The notes under the pieces were generated by a model. The model had not been told where the DNA came from. It saw only the letters and a program-made list of their open reading frames with translations, and did not search any database. Positions 8,244 to 59,887 of a stretch of 64,000 nt of DNA are shown piece by piece. The stretch covers positions 9,865 through 73,864 of the forward strand of contig CAYTOA010000005.1 in assembly GCA_964439265.1 (NCBI GenBank), read 5' to 3'. The DNA is from an uncultured Chitinophagaceae bacterium (GTDB lineage: Bacteria > Bacteroidota > Ignavibacteria > UBA10030 > UBA8401). The translations under genes and the position numbers were made by a program. Each line of letters begins with the position of its first letter. The stretch's first letter is position 1.

Positions 8244-8579
8244 GGCATCGATATCTGCCGACAAAGCGCTCCCGCGTTTGCCACTCAGTCATTTCTCGCA
8301 AAAGCAAGACATCCCTTCATTCAAAGTCCATCCAGTCAGAGTCCAATTGATTCAGCGTAGTCCCTGATCCCGCATAAAAGGGGATCAGAACGACATGCCA
8401 CTATTGGACAAGTGGCTAATACCCGCCAGAAAATAATCCTCCCACCCAGAGCCAATTTCCTGCCCCTCTGAAAAACCCAAAGTTCGCTCGCTTTTGCTCC
8501 ATTTCTCTGTCACGACAACGTGGCACGTGCTTTGAACATGTGCATGCCAAGGAATATAGAATCATGATTCGCGGCATCA

Positions 8580-13826: not shown

Positions 13827-13841
13827 TAATTCATCCCTTCG

Positions 13842-13872
13842 CTCCCCTTTGTCTTCGTACGACAAAGGGGAG
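13842..13872 (+). terminator. Stem-loop (12-bp stem ctcccctttgtc / gacaaaggggag, 7-nt loop) 16 nt after the MCP stop; no U-tract
   Basis: Perfect inverted repeat read directly from the sequence. Not followed by a T-run, so it may be an RNA-stability hairpin or weak terminator rather than a canonical intrinsic terminator. Confidence 0.35.
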
Positions 13873-14026
13873 ACGGGTAGGGAGACTCGACAGGACCAAA
13901 TCATAGAGATTGTCGGCAGCTTGCTCAAGATTTTGCAAGCGTGCCAAATTCCAAGTCGGGATATAAAAGAGACAGTCCATTTTTTTTCAAGGGCGTTAGC
14001 CCAAACACAACATAGGAGACAACGAA

Positions 14027-17996: not shown

Positions 17997-20900
17997 TTGC
18001 TTCATCACGGTCGCAGGAAAATAGAGAAGTGCGAATTTTTCACCAACGGATGTTTCACGGCAGAGTCAACAATGGAAATTGCGGAAATGACGAAGAACAG
18101 CCATGCAGAGGAGTCCACCGACGGAATTTGCATGACCGATGAAGAGGGCCGTGTCATCGAATGGAATCATGGCATGCAGGACATCACCGGGATCAACCCA
18201 GAAGAGGTCTTGGGCAGACCATTATGGGACGTGCGATTCCAATTGACTCCGCCGGAAGCTCGCACGGACGATTTATTGAAACGGCTCGAGACTGCCGCGA
18301 TGAATCAGTTGAAAACCGGTAATAGCGAATCGGCGGCCGAATTCGCGGAACAATGGATTCTTCAGCAGGACGGCAGCCGGAAGCTCGTCCTGAAGAATTT
18401 TTTTACCGTGAAGACTCAAACCGGCTATATGATAGGTGCCATAGTCAGAGACATTACATCTGAGAGGAATGCCGAGAATCAACTGCTGTTCTTAAAAAGA
18501 GCAGTAGAAAGCACTTCTTCTGCGGTTCTCCTTTGCGACCTGGAAGGGAGGATAGAGTATGCTAACCCCGGAGCTCTGGCGATGGTAGAGTTCACAGCGG
18601 AGGAGGCAGCTGGAAAGCTATTGTCTGATTTTGGCGATAGCATGGCTAAAGAGAATCTAAGCTCCCAAACTATTCCAGCGCTGAAGAAATCAGGTCAGTG
18701 GTCTGGCGAAGTTAACCTTCAGAAGAGAGACGGAACTCTTGTTCCGATCCATTCTACTTGTGCGCTTGTCTCTGATAGCCATGGCAATCCTCAAGGTCTG
18801 CTGTCAATCTGTTATGACCTTACTCAACGCAAAAAGGCAGAGTCTGCTCTCCAAACGAGCGAGAGTCTACTCTCAAACGCCATGAACATGGCGAATCTGG
18901 GACATTGGGAATACGATGTGGCCGCAGATCTCTTCACCTTCAACGATAATTTCTATTCCATTTTCCGTACGACGGCCGAGAAGGTCGGAGGATATACGAT
19001 GTCCTCTGCCCAATACGCGCAAAGATTTGTCCATCCCGATGACATGTCTGTGGTCAGCACAGAAATTCGGAAAGCGCTTGAGGATCGTGACCCCCAGTTC
19101 GGTGCAACACTGGATCATCGAATAATCTATGCCGACGGTTCGCCCGGCTATATTTCCGTCCGATCCTTCGCTGTCAAGGATGAAGAGCATAAAGCGGTCA
19201 AACTCTACGGAGTCAATCAGGACATCACCGAACGTAAACAACTGGAAGAAGCGCTGCTGAAGAGCAAACAGCGGTATGACAAGCTAGCTTCAACAATTCC
19301 TGTTGGTTTGTACCTTTTGCATAGTAAGCCTGATGAATCATTCACCTTTGACTACGTCAGCCCAAGGATGGCGGAGATTCTCGACCTGAGCGTCGAAAGC
19401 CTTCTTGGAGATGCACAACTTGCGTTTAGCCAAATACTTCTGGAGGACCAGACCTCTTTCGTGAGTGTCAATCGGGAGAGTTTTGAAAAGCAGTGTTCCT
19501 TTGATTGGGAGGGGCGGATTCAGATCAACGGAGCCGTTAAGTGGTTGCACATAGCCTCCACTCCCGAATTGCAGGAGGATGGAGATACTTTGTGGCATGG
19601 TGTCGTCGGCGATCTCACGGATGCCAAGCTAGCAGAGGGGGCACTGAAGGCAAGTGAACGTAGGATCCGTTCGTACATCGAGCATGCGCCCATGGGTGTT
19701 TTCATCATTGACGGTTCCGGATGCATTACTGAAGTGAATCCCCAAGGAATCAAAGTGATCGGGTACTCAGAGATTGAGGTTCTCGGGAGGCCGCTGACGG
19801 ATTTCGTAGTGCCTCAATTCTTGGATAAGGCCGGATGGGACCTCGGTACTGTTGTTACGGGAGGGAATGTCGAGGATGTTCTACAGGCTCGAAGAAAAGA
19901 CGGCTCGTTTGTCTGGATCTCGGTAAACTGCGTGAAGATCGATGACAATCGTTTCATGTCCTTCTGCCAAGACATCACTTCGAATAAACAGGCCGAAATG
20001 GCGTTGGCGGAGAGTGAGGCAAAATATCGCTCCGTTGTTGACGGTGTTAAGGAAGTTATTTTCACGACTGATGCGCAAGGAAATTGGACGTTTCTTAATC
20101 CGGCCTGGGAAGAGATCACAGGATTCACTGTTGAAGAAACCATCGGACAGTTGTTTCTGAACTACCTTCTTCCCGAGGACAGCAAGTTGAACATAGCGCG
20201 ATTTGAACGGTTGATTGAAGAGAAGGAAAACTTCTACCGTCACGAAATTCGTTACAGAACAAAGAGTGGCGGTTTCCGTTGGATAGAAGTGTCTGCACGA
20301 CTGACAAGAGACGAGAACGGTGCGATCACCGGAACCGCCGGAACCCTCATGGATACAACGGAGAGGCACTTGGCAGAAGATGCCCTCAAAGAAGCGAAAG
20401 AGAATCTGGAGTTACGGGTTTCCAAGCGGACAGCAGAACTCCGCCTCGTTGCAGAAGAACTGCACGTCGAACTTGATGAGCGAAAGAAAGTTGAGCAAGC
20501 CCTTAGTGTATCAAAAAAGAGGGTCTCGCTGCACATTCAGCAGACACCTCTTGCTGTGATTGAATGGGACTTGGAACAACGTATTTCGACATGGAACCCT
20601 GGGGCTGAGAAGGTGTTCGGTTATCCTCAGGCAGAAGCCAAGGGGCAACCTGCATCATTCATCGTTCCCGAAACGGAAAAAAAACACTCCATCGAAATGT
20701 TTCAAAAGCAGGTAAGGAATCGGAAGAGTTTGAAGGGTGTTTTTAAGAACATAACGAAGTCCGGAAAGTTGATCACGTGTGAATGGGTCGACACGGTCTT
20801 GGAGGATGAAACAGGAAAGGTTGTTGGTCTGACTTCCATCGCGCAAGACATCACCGAAAGGCTCGATGCGGAGCATCAGCTTCGTATGCTTTCGTACGCG

Positions 20901-25821: not shown

Positions 25822-28800
25822 ATGGACATCGCCTTTCGCAGACATAATCTCAGAAGTGACATCCTTGTCGTCTTCGCAGTGCTTCTATATACATTGACAT
25901 TTAGTCCTTTGTACAACCTGGTTGGCAACTCGACGGCAGCTCTCGTCCTGATCCCGGTAGCCCTTGCCGGATTCTACTATGGGGTAGGAGCTGGCATCGT
26001 TGCTGGATTGTTGACACTTCCGTTGAACTTTCTTCTCTTCAGCCAGTTCGAAAACTCTTCACTCTCGTTTCATTTTCTCAATTCACTCCCCCCCATCGTC
26101 ATTGCCGAGTTTGTCGGAGCATTCAGCGGCTGGCTCCACGGCCTTTTGCTTCAGACAAAGGAACAGGCGCGGCAACTGCAAAAAGAAATATTTGAGCGGG
26201 AAAAATCAGAAGAGCAGCTGAAACAAAGCAGTGAGCGCCTTGAGCTGGCTCTTCATGGTGCGGACCTCGGCTTGTGGGATGTCGACACCAAGTGGGAACA
26301 CGCGGTCTTTAACGATCGATGGGCGGAAATGCTGGGATTCACTAAAGAAGAAATCGGTTCAAGCACGGATGTTTTTTGGAAGCTCATACATCCGGACGAT
26401 CAGAAGATGGTGCGGGATGCGCTTGAAGCACATCTCAGCGGAAAATCCGAGATCTATGAGACCGAGCACCGGATGAAGGCGAAATCCGGGGAATGGAAGT
26501 GGGTTCTGAACAGGGGGAAAGTTGTGGAACGTTACCCGGACGGTTCGCCGCGGCGTGTGGCGGGTACACACCTGGATATTACAGAACGGAAAAAGAATAT
26601 TGAATGGCTGCAAGTGTTAGGGAGGGCGATCGATGCCGCAATGAACGGCATCGTGATTACCGATCCATTGCAGCCAGGCAATCCGATTATTTTCGCAAAT
26701 CCTGCGTTCGAAAAGAATACTGGATATTCGCGGAACGAGGCGATAGGGCGCAATCCTCGTTTTCTTCAAGGGGTCGATACAAACCGGGAGACCGCGCACT
26801 CTATTCGCACTGCACTTGAAAGAGGGGAGGGATGCCGGGTTGTCATTAAGAACTACCGAAAAGACGGTTCGCCGTTCTGGAACGAATTGTCCATCTCTCC
26901 GATGAGAGACCACACAGGCAAGATCGTCAACTTCATCGGCATTCAATCGGATATTACCGAGAAACGGCTCATGCATGAAGCTCTTCAACAGAGCGAGGAA
27001 AAGTTCCGCTGTTTCATTGAACAATCGTCCGATGGGATCTTCCTCACAGATGAAGAAGGATTGATCACTCAATGGAATCGCGCTGAGCGGCGGATCACAG
27101 GGCTGGCGTTTGAAGAGGTTGCTCATCAACCTGTGTGGGAAGTGCAGCATTGGCTCCTGCCGAAATCGCGTCAGACGACGGAAATAGAGAGGAAGGTAAA
27201 GAAGCGCGTCCAGAAACTGCTTCAGACCGGAGGCGGAGACTGGGCGATGCGGCCGTTCGAACAAGAAGTTTACCGTCGGGATGGCTCGGCCTTAAACGTC
27301 GAAGCGGTGGTTTTTCCTATCAAAACGCCCAAAGGGTACTTGATGGGAAGTATCATGAGAGATATTTCAAAACAGAAAAGAACGAACGAAGAGCTTCGAA
27401 GGCTTAACCGGGCGGTGGAGAGTACTCAATCAGGAATTGTGCTCGCAAGCCTGGATGGGGTGGTTGAATACGTCAATCCAGGGCTTCTTAGCATGCATGC
27501 GTACGACAGTAAAGAAGAAGTGCTTGGACGATCCATTTTTGAATTTACCGACGGCGCTGGCCGTGAAATGCTCAGCTCAGAGATAATTCCCCAACTTTTG
27601 ATCTCCGGAAAGTGGTCCGGTGAACTCTTGACCCGGAAAAAAGACGGTTCGTTTATACAGTCTCAAATGATCTGTTCTATGGTGTACGGTCAGAAAGGGG
27701 AGCCAGTATCGCTGTTCTCAAATTTCTACGATATTACGGAACGGAAGCTTGCTGAGCATGCCCTCGAAGAAAGTGAATCGAAATACCGCTCGGTGGTTGA
27801 GAACATCAAGGAAGTCATCTTTCGCACAGATGTGACAGGCAATTGGACATACCTTAACCCCGCCTGGTGTGAGATCAGCGGTTACTCAATCGAAGAGAGT
27901 CTTGGCCTGCGCTGTCTGGACTTTGTCCATCCTGATGACCGCGAGCGAAGTGAGGAGCTGTTCAAGCCGCTCATCAATCGAGAAAAAGAATATTGCAGGC
28001 ATGAAGTTCGCTATCTCCGGAAGGATGGAGGGGAGTGCTGGATTGAAGTCTATGCACGATTGACGTCGGACGATGACGGGAATGTGTCCGGCACGACGGG
28101 GACTCTGATGGATATCACAAACCGCCGAAGAGCTGATGAGGCATTGCGGAATGCGAATGATATGCTCGAAGCCAAAGTTGCCGAGAGGACCCGCGAACTC
28201 CAAGATGCGGTCGGGAATCTCAATTTCGAGCTCGAAGAGCGTAAGAGAGCTGAAGAGATGATCCGCGAGCAAGCGATGCTTCTAGACGAGGCTCACGATG
28301 CGATTTCCGTCAGCGGCCTGGACGGTAAAATACGGTTTTGGAATAAAAGTGCAGAGCGTCTCTACGGTTGGTCTGCTCAGGAAGTCGTCGGGTTGAACGC
28401 AAATGATCTCGAACGGAAGGCTATATCTGATAAGGGAATGAAGACACTCCTGGAATCGGGAGAATGGAGCGGAGAACTTGAACGTCGGAAGAAAGACGGA
28501 ACTGCCGTCGTTGTCGACAGCCGTTGGACCCTCGTTCGTGATGCAAAGGGAGAACCGCTGACGATCCTCGTCATTGACACTGATATCACCGAGAAGAAAC
28601 AACTTCAGGCGCAGTTCCTTCGGGCGCAAAGAATGGAGAGTATCGGAACCCTTGCTGGCGGCATCGCACACGACCTCAATAATATTCTGACTCCGGTGAT
28701 GATGTGGTCCGAAGTTCTTCGCAGCAAAATGCCGGACGAGAAATCACAACGTATTCTCTCTTTGCTGGAATCGAGCGTGCAGAGAGGAGCGGATATGGTC

Positions 28801-29781
28801 CGCCAGGTATTGAGCTTCTCCCGCGGCATTTCAGGCGAACGGGTCGAGATGCAATTCAAGCACATTCTAAAAGATCTCGAAAAGATAATGCAGGAATCAT
28901 TCCCGAAGTCGATTGAAATTGTGGTTGACGTTCCCAAAGATCTTTGGACCGTGATGGGAGACGCAACGCAGCTTCACCAGGTCTTGATGAATCTTTGCGT
29001 TAACGCTCGCGACGCAATGCCGCACGGCGGGACACTGACTGCATCATGCGACAACATGACAATCGATGATAACTACGCACGCATGCATCTCGACGCCAAG
29101 CCGGGCAATTACGTTGCAATCTCCGTAGCGGATTCGGGAACGGGGATTCCTCCGGAAACTTTAGAAAGAATATTCGAGCCGTTTTTTACGACGAAAGAGA
29201 TCGGGAAAGGGACCGGCTTGGGGCTTTCTACCTCCGTTGCCATCGTTAAGAGTCATGGCGGGTTTATCAACGTTTATAGTGAAGTTGGGAGGGGGACAAC
29301 ATTTAAGATGTACGTTCCGGCCGTTCCAGGTCTGGTGCAACGTGAGATGAGTGAGAAGAGCGACCCGCTTATGAGGGGAAATGGGGAGACGCTTCTCGTT
29401 ATAGACGACGAAGCGATCATCCGTGAGTCGATAAAGGGTGCCTTGGAGGAATTCGGATACAACGTTCTTATCGCCGATGACGGGGCCCAGGCCATTGCTG
29501 TCTATATGCTCCATCAACGAGAAATTGCTGCGGTCATTACCGATATGATGATGCCGTTTATGGACGGCGTATCTACTATCAGAGCTCTGCGGCGAATCGA
29601 CCCCGGATTAAAGATCATCGCTGCCAGCGGTTTAGCCGATAATGAACGAATACTCCAGAAAAGGAATTTGAGTGTCGATGGTTTTTTGAGAAAACCATAC
29701 ACGACCAGAGATCTCCTGACAATGCTTTTCACGATCCTCGGCAAAGCCCCTAAGCTCGTTCAAGAAGAAGAACGGAGCTAA
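25822..29781 (+). CDS. Membrane-anchored multi-PAS hybrid sensor histidine kinase with C-terminal REC
   Basis: Three to four N-terminal transmembrane helices and multiple PAS/PAC units. A PAS plus coiled-coil module is paralogous to one in the 1767-aa kinase. H-box IAHDLNNILTPVM. HATPase [15 protein letters not shown]. Receiver LLVIDDEAI...VITDMMMPFMDG. Confidence 0.9.
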   Translation: MDIAFRRHNLRSDILVVFAVLLYTLTFSPLYNLVGNSTAALVLIPVALAGFYYGVGAGIVAGLLTLPLNFLLFSQFENSSLSFHFLNSLPPIVIAEFVGAFSGWLHGLLLQTKEQARQLQKEIFEREKSEEQLKQSSERLELALHGADLGLWDVDTKWEHAVFNDRWAEMLGFTKEEIGSSTDVFWKLIHPDDQKMVRDALEAHLSGKSEIYETEHRMKAKSGEWKWVLNRGKVVERYPDGSPRRVAGTHLDITERKKNIEWLQVLGRAIDAAMNGIVITDPLQPGNPIIFANPAFEKNTGYSRNEAIGRNPRFLQGVDTNRETAHSIRTALERGEGCRVVIKNYRKDGSPFWNELSISPMRDHTGKIVNFIGIQSDITEKRLMHEALQQSEEKFRCFIEQSSDGIFLTDEEGLITQWNRAERRITGLAFEEVAHQPVWEVQHWLLPKSRQTTEIERKVKKRVQKLLQTGGGDWAMRPFEQEVYRRDGSALNVEAVVFPIKTPKGYLMGSIMRDISKQKRTNEELRRLNRAVESTQSGIVLASLDGVVEYVNPGLLSMHAYDSKEEVLGRSIFEFTDGAGREMLSSEIIPQLLISGKWSGELLTRKKDGSFIQSQMICSMVYGQKGEPVSLFSNFYDITERKLAEHALEESESKYRSVVENIKEVIFRTDVTGNWTYLNPAWCEISGYSIEESLGLRCLDFVHPDDRERSEELFKPLINREKEYCRHEVRYLRKDGGECWIEVYARLTSDDDGNVSGTTGTLMDITNRRRADEALRNANDMLEAKVAERTRELQDAVGNLNFELEERKRAEEMIREQAMLLDEAHDAISVSGLDGKIRFWNKSAERLYGWSAQEVVGLNANDLERKAISDKGMKTLLESGEWSGELERRKKDGTAVVVDSRWTLVRDAKGEPLTILVIDTDITEKKQLQAQFLRAQRMESIGTLAGGIAHDLNNILTPVMMWSEVLRSKMPDEKSQRILSLLESSVQRGADMVRQVLSFSRGISGERVEMQFKHILKDLEKIMQESFPKSIEIVVDVPKDLWTVMGDATQLHQVLMNLCVNARDAMPHGGTLTASCDNMTIDDNYARMHLDAKPGNYVAISVADSGTGIPPETLERIFEPFFTTKEIGKGTGLGLSTSVAIVKSHGGFINVYSEVGRGTTFKMYVPAVPGLVQREMSEKSDPLMRGNGETLLVIDDEAIIRESIKGALEEFGYNVLIADDGAQAIAVYMLHQREIAAVITDMMMPFMDGVSTIRALRRIDPGLKIIAASGLADNERILQKRNLSVDGFLRKPYTTRDLLTMLFTILGKAPKLVQEEERS

Positions 29782-37811: not shown

Positions 37812-38902
37812 GCGCGACCATCAATGTCGTGGTCGTCGACGATTCTGCGTTCATGAGAAAATCTCTTGCGATGCTGCTCGAATCGGATCCAGGGATCAAA
37901 GTCGTCGCAACGGCCCGGGATGGCAAAGATGGCATTGACAAAATCAGGGAATTTAAACCCGACCTGGTTACAATGGACATCGAAATGCCGGTGATGACCG
38001 GTCTCGAAGCGCTCGCCATCATCATGAAAGAGATGCCTCTTCCGGTTCTCATGGTCAGTTCATTGACAACCGAAGGTGCGCAATCTACCCTTGACGCTCT
38101 CGCTCTTGGAGCGATCGATTTTATTCCGAAAGAACTCTCATACGTCTCTCTCGATATCGTCAAAATCAAGGCAGAACTTGTATCGAAAGTAAAAGAAATT
38201 GTACGCAGCCGTTCGCTTGTCTTTCGACTGCAGCGAATTCGTACCGCAAATCAGCATATCAGGGGGCCCGTTGCGAATAAGTCCGCAGCAATTCGGAAAC
38301 CTTTTGTTCCCCCGAAGCACGGCGGTTTTAAAGCGGTGGTGCTCGGCATATCAACAGGAGGACCGTTTGCGCTGCTGGAAACGATACCAAAATTGCCCGA
38401 AAATTTTCCTGTAGGGATAGCCGTTGTGCAGCATATGCCCCCCCGCTTTACGAAATCACTAGCGGACAGACTTGACGGCTTGAGCCAGGTGCACGTGAAA
38501 GAAGCTGCTGACGGCGATTTCATGGAACCGGGAGTGGTACTCATCGCCCCCGGGGGGCAGCATATGACGTTTGTTCACTCGTCAATGAAAACTCGCGTAA
38601 GGATCTCAGACGAGCCAAGAAATACGTTGTATCATCCCTCTGCCGATATCATGATGTCGTCCGCAGCAGAGGCTATTAATGGTCCGCTGTTGGGGGTCAT
38701 CATGACCGGAATGGGAAGAGACGGACTGGAAGGATTGAAATTAATCAGGAAACGTCATGGCTATGTTATAGCTCAAGATGAAGAGTCGTGTGTCGTCTAC
38801 GGAATGCCGAAAGCTGCAGTTGACGAAGGAGTGGCAAATGCCGTAGTACCTCTGCGAGATATTCCTGAAACTATACTTAAAGTTATACAGGGAAATGACT
38901 AA
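37808..38902 (+). CDS. cheB: Chemotaxis methylesterase/deamidase CheB (REC + CheB_methylest)
   Basis: VVVVDDSAFMRK...DIEMPVMTG receiver. GISTGGP and GMGRDG motifs of the catalytic Ser-His-Asp domain. ATGA overlap with the cheA stop. Confidence 0.9.
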   Translation: MSATINVVVVDDSAFMRKSLAMLLESDPGIKVVATARDGKDGIDKIREFKPDLVTMDIEMPVMTGLEALAIIMKEMPLPVLMVSSLTTEGAQSTLDALALGAIDFIPKELSYVSLDIVKIKAELVSKVKEIVRSRSLVFRLQRIRTANQHIRGPVANKSAAIRKPFVPPKHGGFKAVVLGISTGGPFALLETIPKLPENFPVGIAVVQHMPPRFTKSLADRLDGLSQVHVKEAADGDFMEPGVVLIAPGGQHMTFVHSSMKTRVRISDEPRNTLYHPSADIMMSSAAEAINGPLLGVIMTGMGRDGLEGLKLIRKRHGYVIAQDEESCVVYGMPKAAVDEGVANAVVPLRDIPETILKVIQGND

Positions 38903-39171
38903 TGGAAAATAACAATGACCAGGGGCGGTCTGCTTTTATAGATTTTGCATCCTTCCAAAGTGTACAGGTGACGAAGCGGTCAAAGACGGGAAGCGTCCTG
39001 AAAGCCGATTCTGTGGACTTGGGGGCGACAAGGCAGATTGAAGTAGAGGCAACCGAGCCAGGCCAATCGGGGATTATCCTTCACCGGAACGGCGAAATTA
39101 TCGAGAGCGTCGAGATCGTCTGCGTATGTGGGAGACATTCCGAAGTAAGGTTGGAATATGATGGTGACTAG
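38902..39171 (+). CDS. Hypothetical small protein, last gene of the che operon
   Basis: 89-aa ORF translationally coupled to cheB (TAATG). No recognisable family. C-terminal VCVCGRH. Confidence 0.35.
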   Translation: MENNNDQGRSAFIDFASFQSVQVTKRSKTGSVLKADSVDLGATRQIEVEATEPGQSGIILHRNGEIIESVEIVCVCGRHSEVRLEYDGD

Positions 39172-39963: not shown

Positions 39964-40460
39964 AGATCGATAAATTCTTTGCCGGGTTCAATATCAGCGC
40001 GATGGGCCTTACCGCACAGCGCAAACGGATGAACGCGATCGCCAGCAACATGGCGAATGCAGAAACGACCAAGACCGAAGACGGCGGACCGTACAGACGG
40101 AAGATCGTCACAGTGAAGGCGGGGGCGCAACAGTCGTTTTCTTCCGCCATGAGTTCGATGAACGTAGAACTCGCAACCACAAACGAGCAGCATATGTCTG
40201 GATTCAGCGAATCGCCTGCCGCAGAAGCAACGACCACCGGAGGGAGCGTACAATCGACCGAAGTAACGGACAATTCTCCCTTCAAAATTATTTATGACCC
40301 GGGACATCCGGACGCGGACAAGAGCGGTTACGTAAAGATGCCGAATGTGAATATCGTAACGGAAATGGTTGATATGATCTCCGCTACACGGTCGTACGAA
40401 GCAAATGTTACAGCAATCGATGGAGCAAAAACGATGGCCAAAGACGCATTGGAGATTTGA
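39960..40460 (+). CDS. flgC: Flagellar basal-body rod protein FlgC
   Basis: GLTAQRKRMNAIASNMANAETTKT... and the C-terminal MVDMISATRSYEANV signature. Confidence 0.9.
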   Translation: MKIDKFFAGFNISAMGLTAQRKRMNAIASNMANAETTKTEDGGPYRRKIVTVKAGAQQSFSSAMSSMNVELATTNEQHMSGFSESPAAEATTTGGSVQSTEVTDNSPFKIIYDPGHPDADKSGYVKMPNVNIVTEMVDMISATRSYEANVTAIDGAKTMAKDALEI

Positions 40461-40462
40461 CG

Positions 40463-40750
40463 ATGGAAGTGAACGATATTTCATCCTCAGCAATACAGAA
40501 TATTCCACAACGGACCAACGCCCCGGCCCAGCCGGAGCAATGGCAGAAAGAACTTGAAAAGGCGGCCGAGGGAAAAGCGCTGCAGGCCGGACAAACTAGT
40601 CCGAGCGCGACGCTCACGCGGGCGGAACAAACATATTTCGAAGAACTCTTCCCGACATCGGCGCCAGAGCTTCAGGCATACTCGCTGTATAAACAGGACG
40701 GATCGTGCTCAGCGTCGTCCATTGGTACCGTCGTCGATCGCAAAGGATAA
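40463..40750 (+). CDS. Hypothetical Gln/Ala-rich small protein between flgC and fliE
   Basis: 95-aa ORF with RBS ggag 8 nt upstream. Fills the flgC-fliE gap exactly. No family assignment. Confidence 0.3.
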   Translation: MEVNDISSSAIQNIPQRTNAPAQPEQWQKELEKAAEGKALQAGQTSPSATLTRAEQTYFEELFPTSAPELQAYSLYKQDGSCSASSIGTVVDRKG

Positions 40751-46061: not shown

Positions 46062-46505
46062 GTGGACTCAATGCAATATGTAGATACCGGTCTGGGCACA
46101 GTACTGAAGGTGAAAAAGTATCAAGAGAAAAAAGCGCACGAGGAACTCGTTCACCTCCTTCGCTCCAAAGACCTCGAACAAGCTGCTCTCTCAGATCTGA
46201 ATGACCGGAGAGAAAATGCGATGTCGGAAGCCGTTCGGGTTTCAAGATCCAGAGCGTTAGAGCTGCAGACAAGCCGTGCATTCCTTAAGACACTTTCAAC
46301 CGAGATCAGGCAAAAGGAAAAAAAGGTCGATGAAATCCAGGGCCAGGCAAATAACAAGCGCTCCGAACTTGTCGAAAGGACTCAATCGAAGCAGATGGTC
46401 GAAAACCTGGACCAGCGGCGGCAGGCGGAAATAGCGAAAGAGATCGACCGTAAGGAGCAACGGCTCATCGATGTGTTGGCACAACGAGTTACGAAGGAGC
46501 TGTAA
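46062..46505 (+). CDS. fliJ: Flagellar export chaperone FliJ
   Basis: 147-aa highly charged coiled-coil protein directly after fliI. Confidence 0.55.
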   Translation: MDSMQYVDTGLGTVLKVKKYQEKKAHEELVHLLRSKDLEQAALSDLNDRRENAMSEAVRVSRSRALELQTSRAFLKTLSTEIRQKEKKVDEIQGQANNKRSELVERTQSKQMVENLDQRRQAEIAKEIDRKEQRLIDVLAQRVTKEL

Positions 46506-46508
46506 CGG

Positions 46509-47045
46509 ATGAAACCGGCGATGAAATATCTAGTAGTCTGGATCGTGACACTCGTACTGGCCGTACAAGTGGTGCTGGTACTATATTACGTGAAACCTGA
46601 AGTGTTTTCAATGCTCAACCCTTCCGCCGCAGCTCCGGCGCCGGTTACGGTAAAACGGGCTGATTCACTCGTCGCAGAAGTTGATACAATCCGCGCTGAA
46701 CAGAAGGATTCAAGCAGTTCCATAAGCACATCTCCGGTGATGATGACCGCATCGGATGACACTCTCAAAGCTCTGGCGGCAAGGTTAGAAGTTGAGATCC
46801 GGAAAGAGGCATCGCTTGAACAAAAATTGACGGCTCACAATGCCGCCGCCGACAGTATCCATGCCAAAGAGATTAAAGGGAAGGCAAAGCTCATAGAATT
46901 GATGAGTCCGGAAGATGCGGCGCGGCTGCTGAAGAACCTGCAATTGAATGTTGCAAAAGAAGTATTAATGGCGGTAAAGAAGAAGCAGGCGGGGAAGATT
47001 CTCAGCGCTATGGAACCGCGGCTGGCAGCACGCATGATACAGTAA
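46509..47045 (+). CDS. Flagellar-operon protein with N-terminal TM helix and MgtE_N-like domain (YlxF/FlbB-like)
   Basis: A transmembrane segment, a coiled coil, and the C-terminal LMSPEDAARLLKNLQLNVAKEVLMAVKKKQAGKILSAMEP resembling the MgtE_N fold. Same position as ylxF in Bacillus fla/che operons. Confidence 0.4.
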   Translation: MKPAMKYLVVWIVTLVLAVQVVLVLYYVKPEVFSMLNPSAAAPAPVTVKRADSLVAEVDTIRAEQKDSSSSISTSPVMMTASDDTLKALAARLEVEIRKEASLEQKLTAHNAAADSIHAKEIKGKAKLIELMSPEDAARLLKNLQLNVAKEVLMAVKKKQAGKILSAMEPRLAARMIQ

Positions 47046-47063: not shown

Positions 47064-50000
47064 ATGAACATACTGAATATTCTCGGAATTGTTCCGGCGA
47101 GTCAAAAAAATGTTGTAGCAGGCCAGGGGTCATTCCCGGCAGCACCGACGCAATCTCTTTTCTTGCCGATGCTCCTTCAGTTCTTTGCCGGTAACGCGAC
47201 AAAATCCGAGACGATTCCCTTTTCGCAGGTGCCGCTGAACGGAACGGCGCAGCCTAACATCGAAAGCCCCAAAAATGTAAAACCTTCCACGAACCGTCCT
47301 GGAGATACCAACGACTCCGCGGGTACAGGCCTGGACTTTCTAGCCAATCAAATTGCTCGGTTCGGGTCTGTGTTTGCGACACTTCAAAATGTAAAATTTA
47401 GCGACGGTATAAAAAACACCCCCTTAGGAAATGATGCCTTGGGGGGAGTTGATTCGAATGAAATTTCATCCGCGCAGGTGTTAGGAAGAGGGGGAGCCAA
47501 TGTTGCGCCAGCGGCTGTTGTTCAGGATCCTTTCGCGTCTGTTCCAACTGAAGGAGTTTCCGTACCGACGATATCGGTTCAACAGACATCAGTTGATGTC
47601 CTTCCTAGCGTATTAGACGTACCCTCTTCAGGGTCAATTACGGCCGCAAGTGTTCCACCTGTGGTCACAAGTTACGCTGCTTCGAATGGCACTCTGCCGT
47701 TGGCAGGTTTTGAACTCACCAAGAGAGTGGATCCACCGGCAATCTTTCCGCAAGCGGAGAGTCATTCCGCCGCAGAAGTAATGACTGAGCCTGCGTTGTC
47801 AGAACTGCCCAGCGAGGCGGGGAATGTAACAACTCTGGCTCCGATAACAAATGTGACAGCAGTTGACGGTTATGATTTGATCGGCATGCGCCAGGCTGCG
47901 GTAGGAAGTGTCGATCCAAGCACTAAGTTGCAGCACACCGAGATTCCAGAGAACACCGTGCTTAATGCAAAGGAGACTCAAGCGGCATCCTTGTTGTCAT
48001 CTAAGCCGTCAGTACGTTTCAGTGAATCCGGGGCTAGCACTCTACAACACCAGGATAATAGCGTCGCCGATTCTGAGGCGATTGTAAAACCATTCACAAT
48101 GCCATCGCCTGTATTCTCAAAGCCGGCAGTTCAGCCGGATAGCCCGGAATCCAGCGCAGTAGTGCCGGCGATCGGAACTGCCCCTAAGACTGTCGTGTTC
48201 GCATCGCCCTCATCGATGTCGCCAGCCCCATTGCCAAAACCGGCTGATCAGCTGAGCGGAGTGTCTTCAATTATTATAATTCCTCCGAGCGAAGGCACCG
48301 GCGAGACTGTTGGATCTGCACTTCCGTCATTGACAATTTCAAATCCAGTTCCTCCATCGGTGATGCCGGGGATCAAGTCTGGTGAAGCGGAATCACATGT
48401 TGGCGCTCAAGATGGTGATTCGAATGCTGCGGTCGAGAATACCATGCGGCGATACGACATGACTGACACTCCGGCGAAAATTAACTTTCTCCTCGATCAG
48501 CTGGGAAATAACACGATTCAAGCGTCCCCCCGGAATATGAATCAGGCTGACAATATCCCGGTGTCTTTGCCCGGACCACTCGTCAAACCCATAACGCAAG
48601 AAAACATCCTAACGTCGAAAATAATCGTTTCGCAGCCTCCCGAAATTCCTTTCTCAAATCCGGAAGGCTCGTTGATGGACAAAGGGTTGCGAGTGAGTGA
48701 TAGTAATGTGGGTCAGTCACATTATCTTGGGATAAAAGATGCTGCTGCGATACCCGTCGATCAATCAAATGTCAAAGGGTCTGTTTCGGGAGGGAAAGAC
48801 CTGGACTATATCGCTGGAGCGAAAGTTGAGGCTGGCTCGCTCCGAACCAAGTTCATGGCCGAATCAGAAGTAGGATCAGAAAAGAATCCGATCATCAACG
48901 AGCAGGTACAACCTCGGGAGAATTCAATTCCTGCATCTCCACTCAAATCTCCCTCATTAAATTCCACATCTCCATTGGAGAGCATGACGCCAATTGCTCA
49001 ACCAACAGTAGGTGAGGTTTCAGTTGATCCAGTTCCTGATGGCATAGCCAGTGCAACTAGTACCCCATCAGAAACCGCTTCATCGATACTGCCGCTAACA
49101 ACGAAGCCAGCCGACGTTATGCCGGCGTCCGTTGTCCAACAGTCCATCGGACCAATGACAAACGAAATTAAGGCCAATCCTCTTCCAGATCGAAAGGTCA
49201 ACACCGCCAGTACTGCTTTCTCGCCTGCGAAAGATGTAACTTTGAAACCCGCAGCATCAGTTGAACAAAGCTCGGTCGATGTTCCACCACCCACGAGGGA
49301 TGTTTCCTCGGCTGATTCAAAACTCATCACAAGTAACGCGCGAGCGGAGATTGGTCAAACTTCTCTAGACGGTGAGTCACTTTTGGTTGGGGCGGCATCG
49401 GTCAAGGGGATTGAACCATCAGCAACTTCTCCAAGAATTGACAGGTATTCCTCCACCGCGGTCGAGCCTAAAGTTTCATTTCCAGAAATGCCTTTCGACA
49501 ACACCGAGAAGATTCTCGCTCCGGCTTTGGCAGCGAACGCAAATCAGAGTGGTACGAACAGTGCATTTGGACTCCGCCAATCCCCGGTCCGCCTGGCCGA
49601 TTCAAGCATTACAGCGCCTCAGAGTCAAAGCCCGGGAAAAGATTCAGTTACCCTAAAGTCTTCGCCGGCGACAACCTCTTCATCGCAGAAACCGGCGGCT
49701 TCTTTGAGTGAAGTGGTGCCGACGGCACCGTTGCCTCAGGAGGAGGGCACAGATAATTTTGCAGCGATTGCAAGTTCTTTGCCAGAAGTATTAGCTCCAT
49801 CGCCACGGCCTCTGGCAGCAACACCGGCTCCTTTCTCGAAGACTTTGGTGCAATCGGGCGAAACGAAGCCAAGGGTTGAATTAGCCACAAACGAGATTTC
49901 GCCCAGCAGCGTTACCCCTCAGGACAATTTGCCGTCGCTGCCGTCTCCACTTTCACCACTGCCGCCGCAAAAGACAGCGCTTGATCACATTGAACAGGAT

Positions 50001-51194
50001 ATAGCAGGCAGCGACAATCATCTGGATTTAGGGAATTCCTTAACGCAAACTGGGTCGAACAAAAATGTAGTAGAGACAAAAGCGTCTGTGGTAAACGTTG
50101 AGAAAAACACAGATCAGTCACAAGCGCCGAAATTGGATCAGGCCCAGATTATTCTTCCTTCCGAAACCGGCGGATTGTTCAAAGCTGCGGCAAGGGAAAA
50201 CGAATCGAGGACGGTTGGCAATAAGGGGCCTCAAATTCTTTCGTCGTTACCCGCGGGCTCACTATCACCCCGGACTTCGGTGATAGGGGATCGTACTGCG
50301 GCCCAGTCGGAGCTCCCTGGCCGGCGGGATGCAAATGCAGCACCTGTCAATCATCCTGACGATAAGGGAAAGCCTCCAAGAGGACAGGAATCGGATCTCC
50401 AAGGAGCAGCGAAGGGTGAGATTGTTACACTGCATGAAACCGTAAAAACGAATTCACAAACGGGATCGGGTAAAGATTCAGGCACGAATGAACAGTTTCA
50501 GCCTCAGGGTAAAATTGCGGAGACGCCACCCGCAGCTACGGATTCCGACCCGCTCCAGAGTTCTGCGGATGATACCGTGACGAAGACCGCAGCTGTGCTT
50601 CCTGCGATGCCCAACGGCAACACAAAAAATGTCCCCATTGCCGCTACGCAAGCGGAACTGCTCGCGAAAATGGCAAATCAGCTTTCAGGAATCCACAATT
50701 CGCAGCTCACCGTTCCTCGTCAGGAAAGCAGCGGACAGAGCACGGCGTCTGTGCCGACGACACAGACAGGACTGATGCCGGGAAATCTGGAGCAGATGGT
50801 TCTGGACCAGGTGTCCAAGAACCTTGTATTGAATCTTAACAATAATTCTTCTGAAGTTAGGATAGCGATGAAACCGGAATCGCTGGGTGAAGTGGTGATG
50901 AAGGTGAAAATGGATGATGGTAAAGTGTCCGCGCAAATCAACGTCAACAATATCAACGTGAAGGCGGTCCTTGATGCGAACGTAGCACAACTGCATGAAA
51001 CGCTCCTCTCAAAGGGCATCGAAGTCCAGCACATCGAGATTATCGCCGACGGTCAGACAGCATTTGGCAGTTCCTCGGGTCAGAACAACCCGAAACAAAA
51101 ATCACAGCAAAGGAGTGCCGCAGAAGTTGACGCGCTCGGTCAATACGACTCTCTTCGCACGATGGGTTACAACACAATTGAACTAATAATGTAA
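47064..51194 (+). CDS. fliK: Flagellar hook-length control protein FliK, unusually long (1376 aa)
   Basis: C-terminal Flg_hook domain (...VRIAMKPESLGEVVMKVKMDDGKVSAQINVNN...AQLHETLLSKGIEVQHIEI). About 1150 aa of Ser/Pro/Thr/Ala-rich low-complexity ruler region. Position is fliJ-x-fliK-flgD. Confidence 0.8.
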   Translation: MNILNILGIVPASQKNVVAGQGSFPAAPTQSLFLPMLLQFFAGNATKSETIPFSQVPLNGTAQPNIESPKNVKPSTNRPGDTNDSAGTGLDFLANQIARFGSVFATLQNVKFSDGIKNTPLGNDALGGVDSNEISSAQVLGRGGANVAPAAVVQDPFASVPTEGVSVPTISVQQTSVDVLPSVLDVPSSGSITAASVPPVVTSYAASNGTLPLAGFELTKRVDPPAIFPQAESHSAAEVMTEPALSELPSEAGNVTTLAPITNVTAVDGYDLIGMRQAAVGSVDPSTKLQHTEIPENTVLNAKETQAASLLSSKPSVRFSESGASTLQHQDNSVADSEAIVKPFTMPSPVFSKPAVQPDSPESSAVVPAIGTAPKTVVFASPSSMSPAPLPKPADQLSGVSSIIIIPPSEGTGETVGSALPSLTISNPVPPSVMPGIKSGEAESHVGAQDGDSNAAVENTMRRYDMTDTPAKINFLLDQLGNNTIQASPRNMNQADNIPVSLPGPLVKPITQENILTSKIIVSQPPEIPFSNPEGSLMDKGLRVSDSNVGQSHYLGIKDAAAIPVDQSNVKGSVSGGKDLDYIAGAKVEAGSLRTKFMAESEVGSEKNPIINEQVQPRENSIPASPLKSPSLNSTSPLESMTPIAQPTVGEVSVDPVPDGIASATSTPSETASSILPLTTKPADVMPASVVQQSIGPMTNEIKANPLPDRKVNTASTAFSPAKDVTLKPAASVEQSSVDVPPPTRDVSSADSKLITSNARAEIGQTSLDGESLLVGAASVKGIEPSATSPRIDRYSSTAVEPKVSFPEMPFDNTEKILAPALAANANQSGTNSAFGLRQSPVRLADSSITAPQSQSPGKDSVTLKSSPATTSSSQKPAASLSEVVPTAPLPQEEGTDNFAAIASSLPEVLAPSPRPLAATPAPFSKTLVQSGETKPRVELATNEISPSSVTPQDNLPSLPSPLSPLPPQKTALDHIEQDIAGSDNHLDLGNSLTQTGSNKNVVETKASVVNVEKNTDQSQAPKLDQAQIILPSETGGLFKAAARENESRTVGNKGPQILSSLPAGSLSPRTSVIGDRTAAQSELPGRRDANAAPVNHPDDKGKPPRGQESDLQGAAKGEIVTLHETVKTNSQTGSGKDSGTNEQFQPQGKIAETPPAATDSDPLQSSADDTVTKTAAVLPAMPNGNTKNVPIAATQAELLAKMANQLSGIHNSQLTVPRQESSGQSTASVPTTQTGLMPGNLEQMVLDQVSKNLVLNLNNNSSEVRIAMKPESLGEVVMKVKMDDGKVSAQINVNNINVKAVLDANVAQLHETLLSKGIEVQHIEIIADGQTAFGSSSGQNNPKQKSQQRSAAEVDALGQYDSLRTMGYNTIELIM

Positions 51195-51205: not shown

Positions 51206-51898
51206 ATGTCTTCACAAGTACAATCTTTGAGCTCCGTTCTGGCTAATACGTCTTCGTCAACGAACTCGCCGCAAACCGCCTCAACACCGGTGCTAGGGGA
51301 GAACGATTTTCTGAAACTTTTGACGATGCAGATGCAGAACCAGGATCCTATGAATCCAATGAGCGGGACTGAATTTGCATCCCAGCTGGCCCAATTCAGC
51401 TCCGTTGAACAGTTGACCAATATCAACGCAGAGTTAGCACAAAGCATCAGTTCAAATTCCGTCCTTACACAGTCGATCAACAATGATCTTGCGGCGACCT
51501 TTATCGGAAAGGACGTGCGGGCGACAACGAATTCATTCCAGTACAGCGGGACGGGAAGCACCAAACTCGGCTACAATCTCCCTTCGGCTGCGAACACTGT
51601 TACCGTGAGTGTCACTGACGGAGCGGGAAATGTGGTAAAGACAATTCAAAGCGCCCCGACCGGAAGCGGCGATCAATCGTTTACGTGGGACGGGACCGAT
51701 AATTCGGGAAATCAAGTCGGCTCAGGGGCATACAAATTCTCTATCCAGGCGACAGACAGCACTGGTGCATCGATCACCGCATCGCCGTTTATTTACGGTA
51801 ATGTCTCGGGCGTTCGCTTCAAATCCGATGGCACGGTCTTTGTAGTTGATGGAATGGAAGTTCCATTATCCGACATCCTTGAAATATCACAAGAGTAA
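51206..51898 (+). CDS. flgD: Flagellar hook capping/scaffold protein FlgD
   Basis: N-terminal FLKLLTMQMQNQDPMNPM signature and a C-terminal FlgD Ig-like region. Confidence 0.88.
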   Translation: MSSQVQSLSSVLANTSSSTNSPQTASTPVLGENDFLKLLTMQMQNQDPMNPMSGTEFASQLAQFSSVEQLTNINAELAQSISSNSVLTQSINNDLAATFIGKDVRATTNSFQYSGTGSTKLGYNLPSAANTVTVSVTDGAGNVVKTIQSAPTGSGDQSFTWDGTDNSGNQVGSGAYKFSIQATDSTGASITASPFIYGNVSGVRFKSDGTVFVVDGMEVPLSDILEISQE

Positions 51899-52436: not shown

Positions 52437-54056
52437 ATGGCATTTCTTAGATCTCTATTCGCAGGCGTTTCCGGATTACAGAACAATCAGTTAATGATGG
52501 ACGTAATCGGAAACAACATCGCCAACATTAACACGATCGGATTCAAAGCGAGCAGGGCAACGTTCAGCGAAGCCTTTGCACAGACACTGCAAAACGCAAC
52601 CCAGCCGGGAGGGAACAGCGGCGGTACGAACGCGATTCAGGTTGGACTCGGTGTTGCGGTCAACACCGTTGACACTCAGTTCACACAGGGGACGCTTCAA
52701 TCGACCGGAGTTTCTACAGACCTCGCAATTCAGGGTAATGGATTCTTTGCGGTGAACCAGAATGGAACGACGCGATACACTCGGGTCGGGACATTTCAGC
52801 TGGACGCAACCGGTCAGTTCGTCAACCCGGGATCGGGCGCGATCCTGGAGGGGACACTGGCATCGGCGAACGGTATTATCACACCAGGAACCCAACTCCA
52901 AAACCTGAAGATCGACCTGAATCAAATCTCACCCGCAAAAGCAACCGGCAGCGTACAGCTCGCTGGAAATCTGGATGCAACGGCGACAGTCGCCGAAGCC
53001 GACCTGACAGGCAATATCGACTCAGGCACCATCGTCGGAGGCACTGTCAATCAGAATTTCAACGTTACGGATGATTTCGGTGTGTCGCATGCGGTGACAA
53101 TGACATTGACGAAGACTGCTGCTGATACCTGGAGCGTTGCAACAACTGACCCGAGCGGAACGGTAGTCGGAGGATCTGGCACTGCGACTTTTGATCCGAC
53201 AACCGGGGCACTAACAGCATTCACTCCGGCGAACATCACATTGAACCCGACGGACAAGGCACCTTCGATTTCAGTGGATATTGCTACGACCGGTCTTACA
53301 CAGACGGCCGGAGCGAGCACTTTTGCGGCGGACCTCTCGAAAGCTGCAGACTCTACGAACGCCTCGGTAACTGTGTACGATTCATTAGGGAATTCGCACT
53401 CCCTTTCGGTGAAATTCACGAAGACCACAACTCCGAACGAATGGACATGGTCGGCGGAAGCTCCGTCCCCTGCTACGATTACCGCAGGACAAACCGGCAA
53501 GATTGATTTCAATTCGGACGGTACTTTGAAAGCGTTCACATACGACGACGCTTCGACGGGACTTAAGATGTCTCCCAATGACGGCGCTTCGGCGATGTCG
53601 GTTAACCTGAGTGCGGGAACCGTGGATGCGTTCGGCGGTATTACGCAGACCAGCGGAACGTCGACCATTTCTCCTCAATCACAGGATGGTTATGCCGCTG
53701 GAAATTTGAGCGGAGTGACCGTCGACCAGAGCGGGAAAATCCTCGGAACGTTCACGAACGGTGCCAGCGTAACAATGGGTCAAGTGATGCTGGCTACGTT
53801 CGACAACCCGAACGGCCTGACGACTGCGGGCGGCAACATGTTCGATGCGTCGGGAAACTCCGGCTCACCGACCATTGCGGCAGCAGGCGGTCCTTCAAAT
53901 TCAACGATCGTCGCCGGCTCATTGGAAGAATCCAATGTCGATCTTGCTCAGGAATTTACGAACATGATCACAGCGCAGCGTGGCTTCCAGGCCAGCGCAC
54001 GCGTCATAACAGTCGCCGATCAGTTCCTGGATGAGGTTGTCAGCTTGAAGAGGTAA
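52437..54056 (+). CDS. flgE: Flagellar hook protein FlgE
   Basis: N-terminal SGLQNNQLMMDVIGNNIANINTIGFKASR and C-terminal ...AQEFTNMITAQRGFQASARVITVADQFL. Confidence 0.92.
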   Translation: MAFLRSLFAGVSGLQNNQLMMDVIGNNIANINTIGFKASRATFSEAFAQTLQNATQPGGNSGGTNAIQVGLGVAVNTVDTQFTQGTLQSTGVSTDLAIQGNGFFAVNQNGTTRYTRVGTFQLDATGQFVNPGSGAILEGTLASANGIITPGTQLQNLKIDLNQISPAKATGSVQLAGNLDATATVAEADLTGNIDSGTIVGGTVNQNFNVTDDFGVSHAVTMTLTKTAADTWSVATTDPSGTVVGGSGTATFDPTTGALTAFTPANITLNPTDKAPSISVDIATTGLTQTAGASTFAADLSKAADSTNASVTVYDSLGNSHSLSVKFTKTTTPNEWTWSAEAPSPATITAGQTGKIDFNSDGTLKAFTYDDASTGLKMSPNDGASAMSVNLSAGTVDAFGGITQTSGTSTISPQSQDGYAAGNLSGVTVDQSGKILGTFTNGASVTMGQVMLATFDNPNGLTTAGGNMFDASGNSGSPTIAAAGGPSNSTIVAGSLEESNVDLAQEFTNMITAQRGFQASARVITVADQFLDEVVSLKR

Positions 54057-58795: not shown

Positions 58796-59887
58796 ATGGC
58801 CGAAGAATCCGCTTCATCACAGGATAAGACAGAAGAGGCAACTCCGCACAAACGCGAAGAGAGCCGCAAGAAAGGTTCCGTCGCCCGCAGCGCGGAGATG
58901 AACTCGGCATTTATTCTTTTCTTCGGCCTGCTCATTCTGTACTTTGGCGGCACGTCACTGGCTACCACAATCGCATCGATGACCCGAACGGTTCTAACGA
59001 ATTCATCTTCCATCGTGATCTCCAGGACAAACGTTCACTATTACATGGTCGAAGGCATTATCATGTGTTTCTATCTTCTCGCCCCGATCATGTTCGGCCT
59101 GCTCGTTGTCGGGCTCGGGGCAAGTGTTGCGCAGGTAGGATTCTATTTCTCGCCCGAGGCGCTTGCCGTAAAATGGAACAAACTCAATCCACTGGCCGGA
59201 ATGCGGAAAGTCATGATTTCGCGCCATGCGATGGCGGAGATGGTGAAAAATCTGTTGAAAGTCGCCGTCATTGCGATAGTCGCGTACATGTCCATTAAGG
59301 GCGCGATGGGTGATACTCTTTCCCTGATGGATGGAGATGTTCGTGGAATCCTCACCTTTCTTGTCGACTCCGCGCTGTCCGCAGCTTTCAAAATTGGTTT
59401 GGCGTTCCTTGCTCTGGCGTTGTTCGATTATCTCTTTCAGAGGTTCGAATTCGAGCGGGATATACGAATGACAAAACAGGAAGTGAAGGAAGAAACAAAA
59501 TCCACTGAGGGCGATCCGTTCGTCAAAGGGCGCATCCGGTCGGTGCAGCGGCAGATCGCCTATAAGAGAATGATGCACGATGTTCCCAAGGCGGATGTCA
59601 TTGTGACCAACCCGACACACGTCGCCGTTGCGCTGAAGTACGAGGCCGGAAAGATGGATGCACCCCGCGTAGTCGCAAAAGGGGCGGAACTCATCGCGCA
59701 GCGGATCAAAGACATAGCGCGAAAACACAACATCCCGATCGTCGAGGATAAAGTTCTTGCACGAGCGCTATACAAATCTGTCGATATCGGGGAAGCGATC
59801 CCGGAAAAACTGTTTCAGGCGGTTGCGCAGCTTCTGGCGTATATTTTCAGAATGAAGAATTCAAAATACACCTATAAGGCGTTTTAA
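58796..59887 (+). CDS. flhB: Flagellar export switch protein FlhB
   Basis: Four transmembrane segments plus a cytoplasmic domain carrying the NPTH autocleavage site (VTNPTHVAVAL). Confidence 0.92.
   Translation: MAEESASSQDKTEEATPHKREESRKKGSVARSAEMNSAFILFFGLLILYFGGTSLATTIASMTRTVLTNSSSIVISRTNVHYYMVEGIIMCFYLLAPIMFGLLVVGLGASVAQVGFYFSPEALAVKWNKLNPLAGMRKVMISRHAMAEMVKNLLKVAVIAIVAYMSIKGAMGDTLSLMDGDVRGILTFLVDSALSAAFKIGLAFLALALFDYLFQRFEFERDIRMTKQEVKEETKSTEGDPFVKGRIRSVQRQIAYKRMMHDVPKADVIVTNPTHVAVALKYEAGKMDAPRVVAKGAELIAQRIKDIARKHNIPIVEDKVLARALYKSVDIGEAIPEKLFQAVAQLLAYIFRMKNSKYTYKAF

Follow-up and report, generated by a model that had tools for sequence, protein, structure and literature searches.

Among secreted molecular rulers FliK is the textbook case, the evidence being drawn from a small number of proteobacteria and from engineered proteins of up to 785 amino acids (aa); its loss gives polyhooks. 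In the Bacillus subtilis-type fla/che operon FliK is a protein of about 487 aa, with ylxF encoded before it and flgD and flgE after it, while the injectisome ruler YscP contains internal repeats, with changes in repeat number changing needle length. Salmonella FliK proteins of 363-785 aa give hooks of 42-135 nm, corresponding to 0.2 nm per inserted residue (PMC6126814), and a fully extended chain measures 0.37 nm per residue (PMC6972891). Here we describe the fliK gene located in 64,000 nucleotides (nt) of DNA from an uncultured Chitinophagaceae bacterium (contig CAYTOA010000005.1, positions 9,865 to 73,864 of the forward strand; from here on the window). New are the longest natural FliK that we have found (1376 aa), an array of ~40-aa units nested in a ~500-aa duplication, and a clade with a natural length series; the membership of the FliK family is not new, the protein was already present in a public collection, and it does not constitute a new system. 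The literature searched, in a search of limited coverage, contained neither a survey of natural FliK lengths nor a report of a FliK of more than 1000 aa.

47064..51194, + strand: fliK, one 1376-aa open reading frame (ORF) with ATG start, stop codon included (from the ORF list)

The giant ORF, which had been noticed in the initial annotation, is single and uninterrupted: across its central 1150 codons its own frame has no stops, whereas the other two frames contain 53 and 60. Flg_hook (PF02120) was the only Pfam family found on the protein (aa 1256-1330, E=1.2e-14, 54.3 bits versus a cutoff of 29.8), and none of the NCBIfam naming models matched at E<=0.01, a miss which reflects sequence divergence and model coverage and which is compatible with the evidence from Pfam and from the fold. 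An orthologue with 44% identity (P0002) carries the name FliK in the JGI records, and at least eight related species have intact fliK orthologues; in L001 and L003-L008, loci of related contigs, the space from the MgtE_N-like gene to flgD is taken up by the orthologous ORF.

An ORF of this length might be created by mis-assembly of repeats, fusion with a neighbour or gene decay, and there is one related long-read assembly (L002) in which fliK is broken into three ORFs and fliI is broken as well. This explanation is however refuted by the other assemblies, and we assign it a negligible probability: 20 contigs carry the identical 1376-aa FliK, the places shown representing seven different samples (ENA, JGI, Logan), and such identity across independent assemblies excludes frameshift, sequencing error, mis-assembly and pseudogenisation, which also answers the earlier concern that frameshifts might split the ORF. 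In addition, the two copies of the spacer module described below are only ~30% identical in the window, making collapse or expansion of repeats during assembly implausible, the gene is intact in L001, L003-L008 and L092-L095, the termini are invariant in the aligned orthologues, and L004 contains an intact 1312-aa counterpart of the L002-type fliK. Within the population the FliK variants differ by 1-2 residues, and the spacer sequences are near-identical within a population and strongly diverged between species. With regard to L002 itself (ENA ERZ25039480 contig_13429), fliK is present in three ORFs (10001-13942) and fliI in two (7344-8688); since the intact 1312-aa version exists in L004 (P0008), these splits are probably assembly frameshift errors. 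Gene fusion was considered separately and ruled out, as in all relatives the MgtE_N-like gene stands upstream as a gene of its own and the N-terminus of FliK is conserved. P0007 (1324 aa, same 90% cluster), at first sight a length variant, is a contig-end truncation, and P0013 (618 aa) and P0015 (664 aa) are fragments.

The spacer between the two ends of FliK contains the following repeated features, identified by BLASTP of masked segments of the protein against itself and with a hidden Markov model (HMM) of the repeat; AlphaFold2 (AF2) confidence is given as the predicted local distance difference test (pLDDT).

47565..48983, + strand: spacer module copy A, aa ~168-640 (self-BLASTP; pLDDT ~30, almost no secondary structure)
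47997..48350, + strand: three tandem ~40-aa units in copy A, aa 312-429 (repeat HMM, E 1e-9 to 5e-12)
49248..50561, + strand: spacer module copy B, aa ~729-1166 (self-similarity to copy A; pLDDT ~30, no secondary structure)
49569..49952, + strand: three ~40-aa units in copy B, aa 836-963 (repeat HMM, E 1e-6 to 3e-11)

To judge from these sequence comparisons, the size of FliK arose by nested internal duplication, with a module of ~450-550 aa present twice and the copies now ~30-33% identical. This is the main structural fact about the protein, and it was absent from the initial annotation. Two pairs of segments carry the match, aa 168-249 versus aa 729-810 (30% identity, E 7e-5) and aa 483-640 versus aa 1015-1166 (33% identity, E 1.6e-12), at offsets of 532-561 aa, with the second pair also delimited as aa 504-640 versus aa 1036-1166; plain self-BLASTP of the whole protein gave the identity match only. 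Copy B adjoins the C-terminal region and is the better conserved of the two. The ~40-aa units have the consensus SSSSKPTVQSGDVESSVVLPQNESSGNPVVVAKPSSTISSPS, and their HMM gave no matches in 220 locally shuffled control sequences. Tandem Repeats Finder detected only a 12-bp trace of 1.9 copies in the fliK DNA, which is explained by the repeats being too diverged at the nucleotide level. The spacer grew in two steps, the first being tandem amplification of the ~40-aa unit and the second duplication of the ~450-550-aa module containing the array. A full-length FliK search of a set of 5.8 billion proteins returned only three clusters, with no relatives of the spacer outside the clade.

The same architecture was found in most of the close orthologues, with differences in copy number and in the divergence of the copies. 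The numbers of ~40-aa units in copy A + copy B are 3 + 3 in the window, 5 + 3 in L001, 5 + 5 in L003, 6 + 5 in L004, 7 + 3 in L008 and 1 + 1 in L005, with none in L006 and L007. Identity between copies A and B is 31-39% in L001, 34-67% in L003, 35-80% in L008 and 36-95% in L004, while L005 (930 aa) has a 215-aa duplication only (76-94% identity), and no module duplication was detected by masked self-BLASTP in L006 (840 aa) and L007 (856 aa). A tree was made of the copies, based on one segment of ~110-145 aa per copy (in copy B the segment preceding the C-terminal domain), and in this tree copy A of the window groups with copy A of L001 and copy B with copy B, which indicates that the duplication is old; in L004/L008, in L005 and in L003, by contrast, copies A and B fall together within the lineage concerned, which indicates later re-duplication or gene conversion. 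Between species, the B copies of this segment are 41-85% identical, versus 17-36% for most of the A copies.

Next to its architecture, it is the length of this FliK which sets it apart. Among the 150 best C-domain relatives in a representative library of 1.84 billion proteins, only three exceed 1000 aa and none is longer than this protein; nor is any of the FliKs measured in 81 loci from several phyla. The 117 relatives of at least 400 aa have a median length of 589 aa and a 95th percentile of 810 aa, and hence the exceptional length proposed at the outset is borne out, at more than twice the usual size and 3.4 times the length of Salmonella FliK. The lengths per group are as follows.

Sub-clade of the window (neighbouring flagellar proteins 77-93% identical): 1376, 1325, 1315, 1312, 1261, 1258 and 930 aa (L005)
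Sister pair L006/L007: 840 and 856 aa
More distant relative P0020, sharing the N-terminal motif: 647 aa
KSB1/Calditrichota-type metagenome-assembled genomes (MAGs): 689-1016 aa
One Ignavibacteriota MAG, with 38-aa tandem repeats: 1074 aa
Gemmatimonadota: 483-1007 aa, mostly 620-760 aa
Bacillota: 534-592 aa
Thermotogota: 509-590 aa

The sub-clade FliKs of at least 1258 aa are those of the window, L001, L003, L004, L008 and L095, and the truncated L090 (at least 827 aa) is consistent with these. In L095:2758-6534 (JGI Ga0335071_10000020), where the neighbouring proteins are 81% identical to those of the window, the FliK is 1258 aa long, and its aa 117-925 (809 aa) had no match to any other FliK tested at E<=0.01 and no internal repeat. 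Here the length was kept while the spacer sequence was replaced or diverged extremely, a pattern which fits a spacer or ruler. Since most FliKs of the sub-clade are ~1260-1376 aa despite a replaced or diverged spacer, spacer length itself is most likely the functional property. In the FliK of the Ignavibacteriota MAG (CAWIHK010000005.1, L073:5577-8801; 1074 aa), aa ~605-900 consist of about eight 38-aa repeats in tandem, which are 42-97% identical and represent an independent route to a long FliK.

The same length series can be read in another way, namely that FliK works as such and that the additional spacer is near-neutral disordered filler, which expands and contracts by recombination between repeats and leaves the hook at ordinary or modestly increased length, as the length of a slack chain is not proportional to its number of residues. 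Among relatives with neighbouring flagellar proteins of 72-93% identity and a near-constant FlgE length, the comparison of FliK lengths called for earlier gave 647, 840, 856, 930 and 1258-1376 aa, with the 930-aa protein of L005 inside the long sub-clade, which favours this reading. It is further favoured by the within-genome copies being 31-95% identical, which suggests ongoing duplication or gene conversion, by the fast divergence of copy A, and by the fact that other lineages have passed 1000 aa by other routes (L073 with its 38-aa repeats, L078 with 1016 aa and L049 with 1007 aa). In Salmonella, short variants of FliK do not give the shorter hooks expected of a physical ruler (bioRxiv 10.1101/2020.03.25.007062). 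Against filler stand the seven lineages of the sub-clade counted as long (at least 1258 aa, including the truncated L090), with L095 having an unrelated spacer, and the linear gain in hook length with every longer Salmonella FliK tested, to a maximum of 785 aa (PMC6126814). We regard near-neutral filler as a doubtful explanation, although one to be taken seriously.

The composition of the spacer does not explain what is special about this protein. The initial annotation described ~1150 aa of low complexity rich in serine, proline, threonine and alanine (S/P/T/A), and the bias itself is confirmed, as these residues make up 39.5% of the whole FliK, in which tryptophan and cysteine are absent; the term low complexity is imprecise and overstated, with a Shannon entropy of 3.5-3.9 bits per 100-aa window and a spacer built of diverged nested repeats. 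Before the C-domain, the S/P/T/A fraction is 0.42 in the window FliK versus a median of 0.39 in the relatives (n=117, >=400 aa), and hence the bias is ordinary for FliK and only the length is unusual. AF2 was run on the two halves of FliK using 4-sequence alignments, and for aa ~45-1195 the pLDDT values were ~30, with hardly any secondary structure; the C-domain served as internal positive control. Proline accounts for 10.8% of the spacer, the median proline-free run is 5 aa and aromatic residues make up 2.5%; such a proline content with 5-residue proline-free runs cannot be reconciled with a ruler formed by a long helix. The ~1,150-aa middle of FliK is thus predicted to be an unstructured, proline-studded spacer.

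Since FliK is known as a secreted protein (PMC6972891), its S/T/P-rich modules could alternatively have gained an extracellular role, such as adhesion, glycosylated mucin-like shielding or interaction with a matrix, and in composition the ~40-aa S/T/P-rich repeats do resemble the stalks of surface proteins. However, Pfam and NCBIfam contain no domain other than Flg_hook for this protein, the spacer has no predicted folded domain, and its sequence is not conserved between species, unlike that of a binding module, which makes such a second role highly unlikely.

The two ends of FliK show the opposite pattern of conservation. An alignment of eight orthologues was divided into a nearly invariant N-terminus (aa 1-45), an indel-rich hypervariable middle, a moderately conserved zone (aa ~1040-1215) and a highly conserved zone (aa ~1215-1376).

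47064..47198, + strand: conserved N-terminus, aa 1-45 (MNILNILGI...SLFLPMLLQFF), with 16 invariant columns in aa 1-41 in eight orthologues
50778..51056, + strand: T3S4/Flg_hook switch domain, aa ~1239-1331 (PF02120; structure 2RRL; AF2; Foldseek)
51057..51191, + strand: C-terminal tail, aa 1332-1376, ending LRTMGYNTIELIM, nearly invariant in eight orthologues

P0020, the relative with 647 aa, and the FliK of L095 (1258 aa) share the N-terminal motif, and AF2 placed short helices at aa 3-6 and 33-42. The first 45 residues are presumed to be the type III export signal and the end interacting with the hook, and no sequence similarity to the N-terminal domain of Salmonella FliK was detectable in them. 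At the other end, the C-domain matches the C-terminal structure of Salmonella FliK by sequence (2RRL, E 1.8e-3), and AF2 predicted an alpha/beta domain at aa ~1239-1331 (pLDDT 61-86) with additional helices at aa ~1196-1207 and aa ~1357-1366. A Foldseek search with the predicted C-domain returned 2RRL (E 7.7e-5) and the T3S4 domain of PscP (5CUK, E 1.7e-4, target TM-score 0.63). The tail is inferred to be the equivalent of the C-terminal tail of Salmonella FliK, without which switching fails in that organism. One protein of the representative library (P0148, 1161 aa) has four separate Flg_hook/T3S4-like stretches, unlike the single-domain FliK of the window.

Taken together with the operon position described below, the protein shows all hallmarks of FliK that can be tested in silico, apart from a match to an NCBIfam model. 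The earlier description of a functional-looking gene with an intact C-terminal domain is upheld by PF02120, the tail, the N-terminus, the position in the operon, the NPTH motif of FlhB and the intact orthologues; as far as sequence can tell, the 1376-aa protein is a bona fide, functional-looking FliK encoded by an intact gene, and no assembly artefact.

Following the Salmonella paradigm, the N-terminus (aa 1-45) would enter the export channel first and contact the hook cap and the growing hook, the spacer would set how long the hook grows before the switch of FlhB, and the T3S4 domain with its tail would perform this switch (PMC6972891). We consider it probable that this is a functional FliK of which the spacer length matters, in which case hook growth would end at a much greater length than in enterics. 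By Salmonella scaling a hook of ~190-250 nm is plausible, and more if the chain is extended; these figures (~190 nm when taken as proportional, or ~250 nm calculated as 55 nm + 0.2 nm x 971 residues) extrapolate beyond the tested range and onto a different type of spacer. A bolder version can be put forward only tentatively, as we give it rather less than an even chance: this lineage might build length-controlled hooks of ~200 nm or more, compared to 55 nm in enterobacteria. Selection would then act on how long the spacer is and not on which residues it contains, and hook length would be tuned in the course of evolution as ~40-aa units and the ~500-aa module are gained, lost and homogenised.

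Several observations weigh against a spacer of which the length matters. Length is not strictly conserved, with L005 nested within the long sub-clade, and the sisters L006/L007 have FliKs of 840-856 aa with essentially equal FlgE length. The fast evolution of the A copies between most species also fits relaxed constraint. The disorder prediction by AF2 comes from four sequences only, and the charge-hydropathy criterion fails to call the spacer disordered (mean hydropathy 0.465 versus a boundary of 0.425). The slope measured in Salmonella was obtained with alpha-helical inserts, and its transfer to a proline-rich chain may be doubtful. Guse, Rohde and Erhardt argue that FliK limits the maximal hook length without physical measuring (bioRxiv 10.1101/2020.03.25.007062). 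Finally, the organism is known only from metagenome assemblies.

The genes around fliK are those of a standard flagellar operon, with the order cheA, cheB, flgB, flgC, fliE, fliF, fliG, fliH, fliI, fliJ and the MgtE_N-like gene, followed by fliK, flgD, a TIGR02530 gene, flgE, flbD, fliL, the fliM-to-fliR positions, flhB, flhA and flhF. The names from fliM to fliR were taken from Pfam matches on the syntenic genes of L001 and L002, and not from scans of the window. The order fliJ, MgtE_N-like gene, fliK, flgD, TIGR02530 gene, flgE is kept in all close relatives.

46062..46505, + strand: fliJ, upstream neighbour (PF02050, E 1.6e-9)
46509..47045, + strand: MgtE_N-like flagellar gene, 178 aa, ending 18 nt before fliK (PF03448, E 1e-5)
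51206..51898, + strand: flgD, hook cap, starting 11 nt past the fliK stop (PF03963, PF13860, PF13861)
52437..54056, + strand: flgE, hook protein of 539 aa (Pfam FlgE domains)
58796..59887, + strand: flhB, export gate and target of the C-terminal domain of FliK (PF01312, E 3.5e-125)

The MgtE_N-like gene is present at the equivalent position in all close relatives. FlhB has its NPTH autocleavage motif at aa 272, and the rod proteins FlgB (142 aa) and FlgC (166 aa) are of ordinary size. FlgE is 539 aa in relatives with long and short FliK alike, where complete; the 553 aa listed for FlgE of L006 results from a mechanical choice of start codon.

This gene content bears on a further suggestion of the initial annotation, that a long ruler has to pass through something extra, for instance a sheath or a very thick basal body. 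An extended rod or a very thick periplasm would likewise lengthen the way before the C-domain reaches FlhB, and the exposed hook would then be of normal length. The length of FliK is itself the sole support for such extra structure, and nothing in the 64-kb window points there: the operon is the standard set (cheA, cheB, flgBC, fliEFGHIJ, fliK, flgD, flgE, flbD, fliLMNOPQR, flhBAF), no extra disk or sheath genes were found within the 64 kb, and FlgB, FlgC and FlgE are all of ordinary size, while the sister species manage with 840-856 aa and the same neighbouring genes. A difference of 500 aa would correspond to ~100 nm or more, to our knowledge far above any known envelope thickness. We therefore consider extra distance as the cause of the FliK length to be very improbable.

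Other features of the locus were recorded in passing. The flagellar/chemotaxis operon is complete at positions 35979-63242 of the window and in loci L003-L008, and its gene order resembles that of the Bacillus type. Among genome records, those closest to the window belong to uncultured MAGs labelled Bacteroidetes, Bacteroidota or Chitinophagaceae, and the MAGs carrying this operon have these same labels, flagella being atypical for that group; in the outgroup, MAGs of Ignavibacteriota, KSB1 and Calditrichota have the nearest flagellar proteins. Small ORFs are also present in the operon, at 40457-40750 (+), at 38902-39171 (+) and, with 54 aa, between fliI and fliJ (L083:792-956), all three of which are also called as genes at matching positions in related contigs. 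The 97-aa ORF between flgC and fliE had no Pfam match; for the other two, it is the L002/L083 counterparts that have no Pfam match on record. Upstream of the che/flagellar operon there is a cluster of four hybrid histidine kinases of 1037-1767 aa packed with PAS domains (1353-4466, 4581-8243, 17997-23300 and 25822-29781, all +), the largest of which has about eight PAS repeats. A 1454-aa methyl-accepting chemotaxis protein (MCP) is encoded at 9462-13826 (+), with a run of 12 HAMP_2 (PF18947) units ahead of a HAMP and an MCP signalling domain, and this poly-HAMP array of 12 units is unusually long.

If spacer length does matter in this clade, the FliKs of ~650, 850, 930 and 1260-1376 aa, in species of which the hook proteins are near-identical, would amount to an allelic series made by nature, with which the physical-ruler model could be separated from the growth-terminator model. 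Should hooks track FliK length, the ruler relation would hold nearly two-fold past the lengths tested and also for a spacer that is proline-rich and non-helical, and repeat dynamics would be shown to tune the dimension of an organelle, whereas ordinary hooks would be strong natural evidence for a terminator and not a ruler.

With regard to the systems described to date, the Bacillus subtilis-type operon has the local order of fliJ, MgtE_N-like gene, fliK, flgD, (TIGR02530 gene), flgE, flbD and fliL in common with the window, but the MAGs of the window's host are filed under Bacteroidota and its FliK is nearly three times longer. The injectisome rulers YscP and PscP (5CUK) share the T3S4 fold with the window FliK, although the context of an injectisome T3S4 ruler (YscP/PscP/InvJ/Spa32) was not found, as all neighbouring genes are flagellar and the Pfam match is to Flg_hook. 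Among natural FliKs, those of L073 (Ignavibacteriota MAG), L078 and L049 (Gemmatimonas) are also longer than 1000 aa with S/P/T/A-rich middles, showing that spacer expansion recurs; no repeats were detected in L078 and L049, and none of the three has the ~500-aa module duplication. The three-part plan is the same as in Salmonella enterica FliK (405 aa), with an N-terminal end for export and hook sensing, a flexible middle, and a T3S4 domain with tail, and the C-domains match by sequence and predicted fold (2RRL), with the FlhB NPTH motif present in the window; outside the T3S4 domain, identity between the two proteins is undetectable. The ruler region of Salmonella FliK is described as alpha-helical (PMC6126814), whereas the spacer of the window FliK is proline-rich, predicted to lack helices and built of nested repeats. 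The engineered Salmonella FliKs with YscP inserts (up to 785 aa) show that a longer middle is tolerated, as these are still secreted and give linear increases in hook length to 135 nm (PMC6126814), but these variants are artificial and have helical inserts, whereas the window FliK is natural, and 591 aa longer than the longest of those tested.

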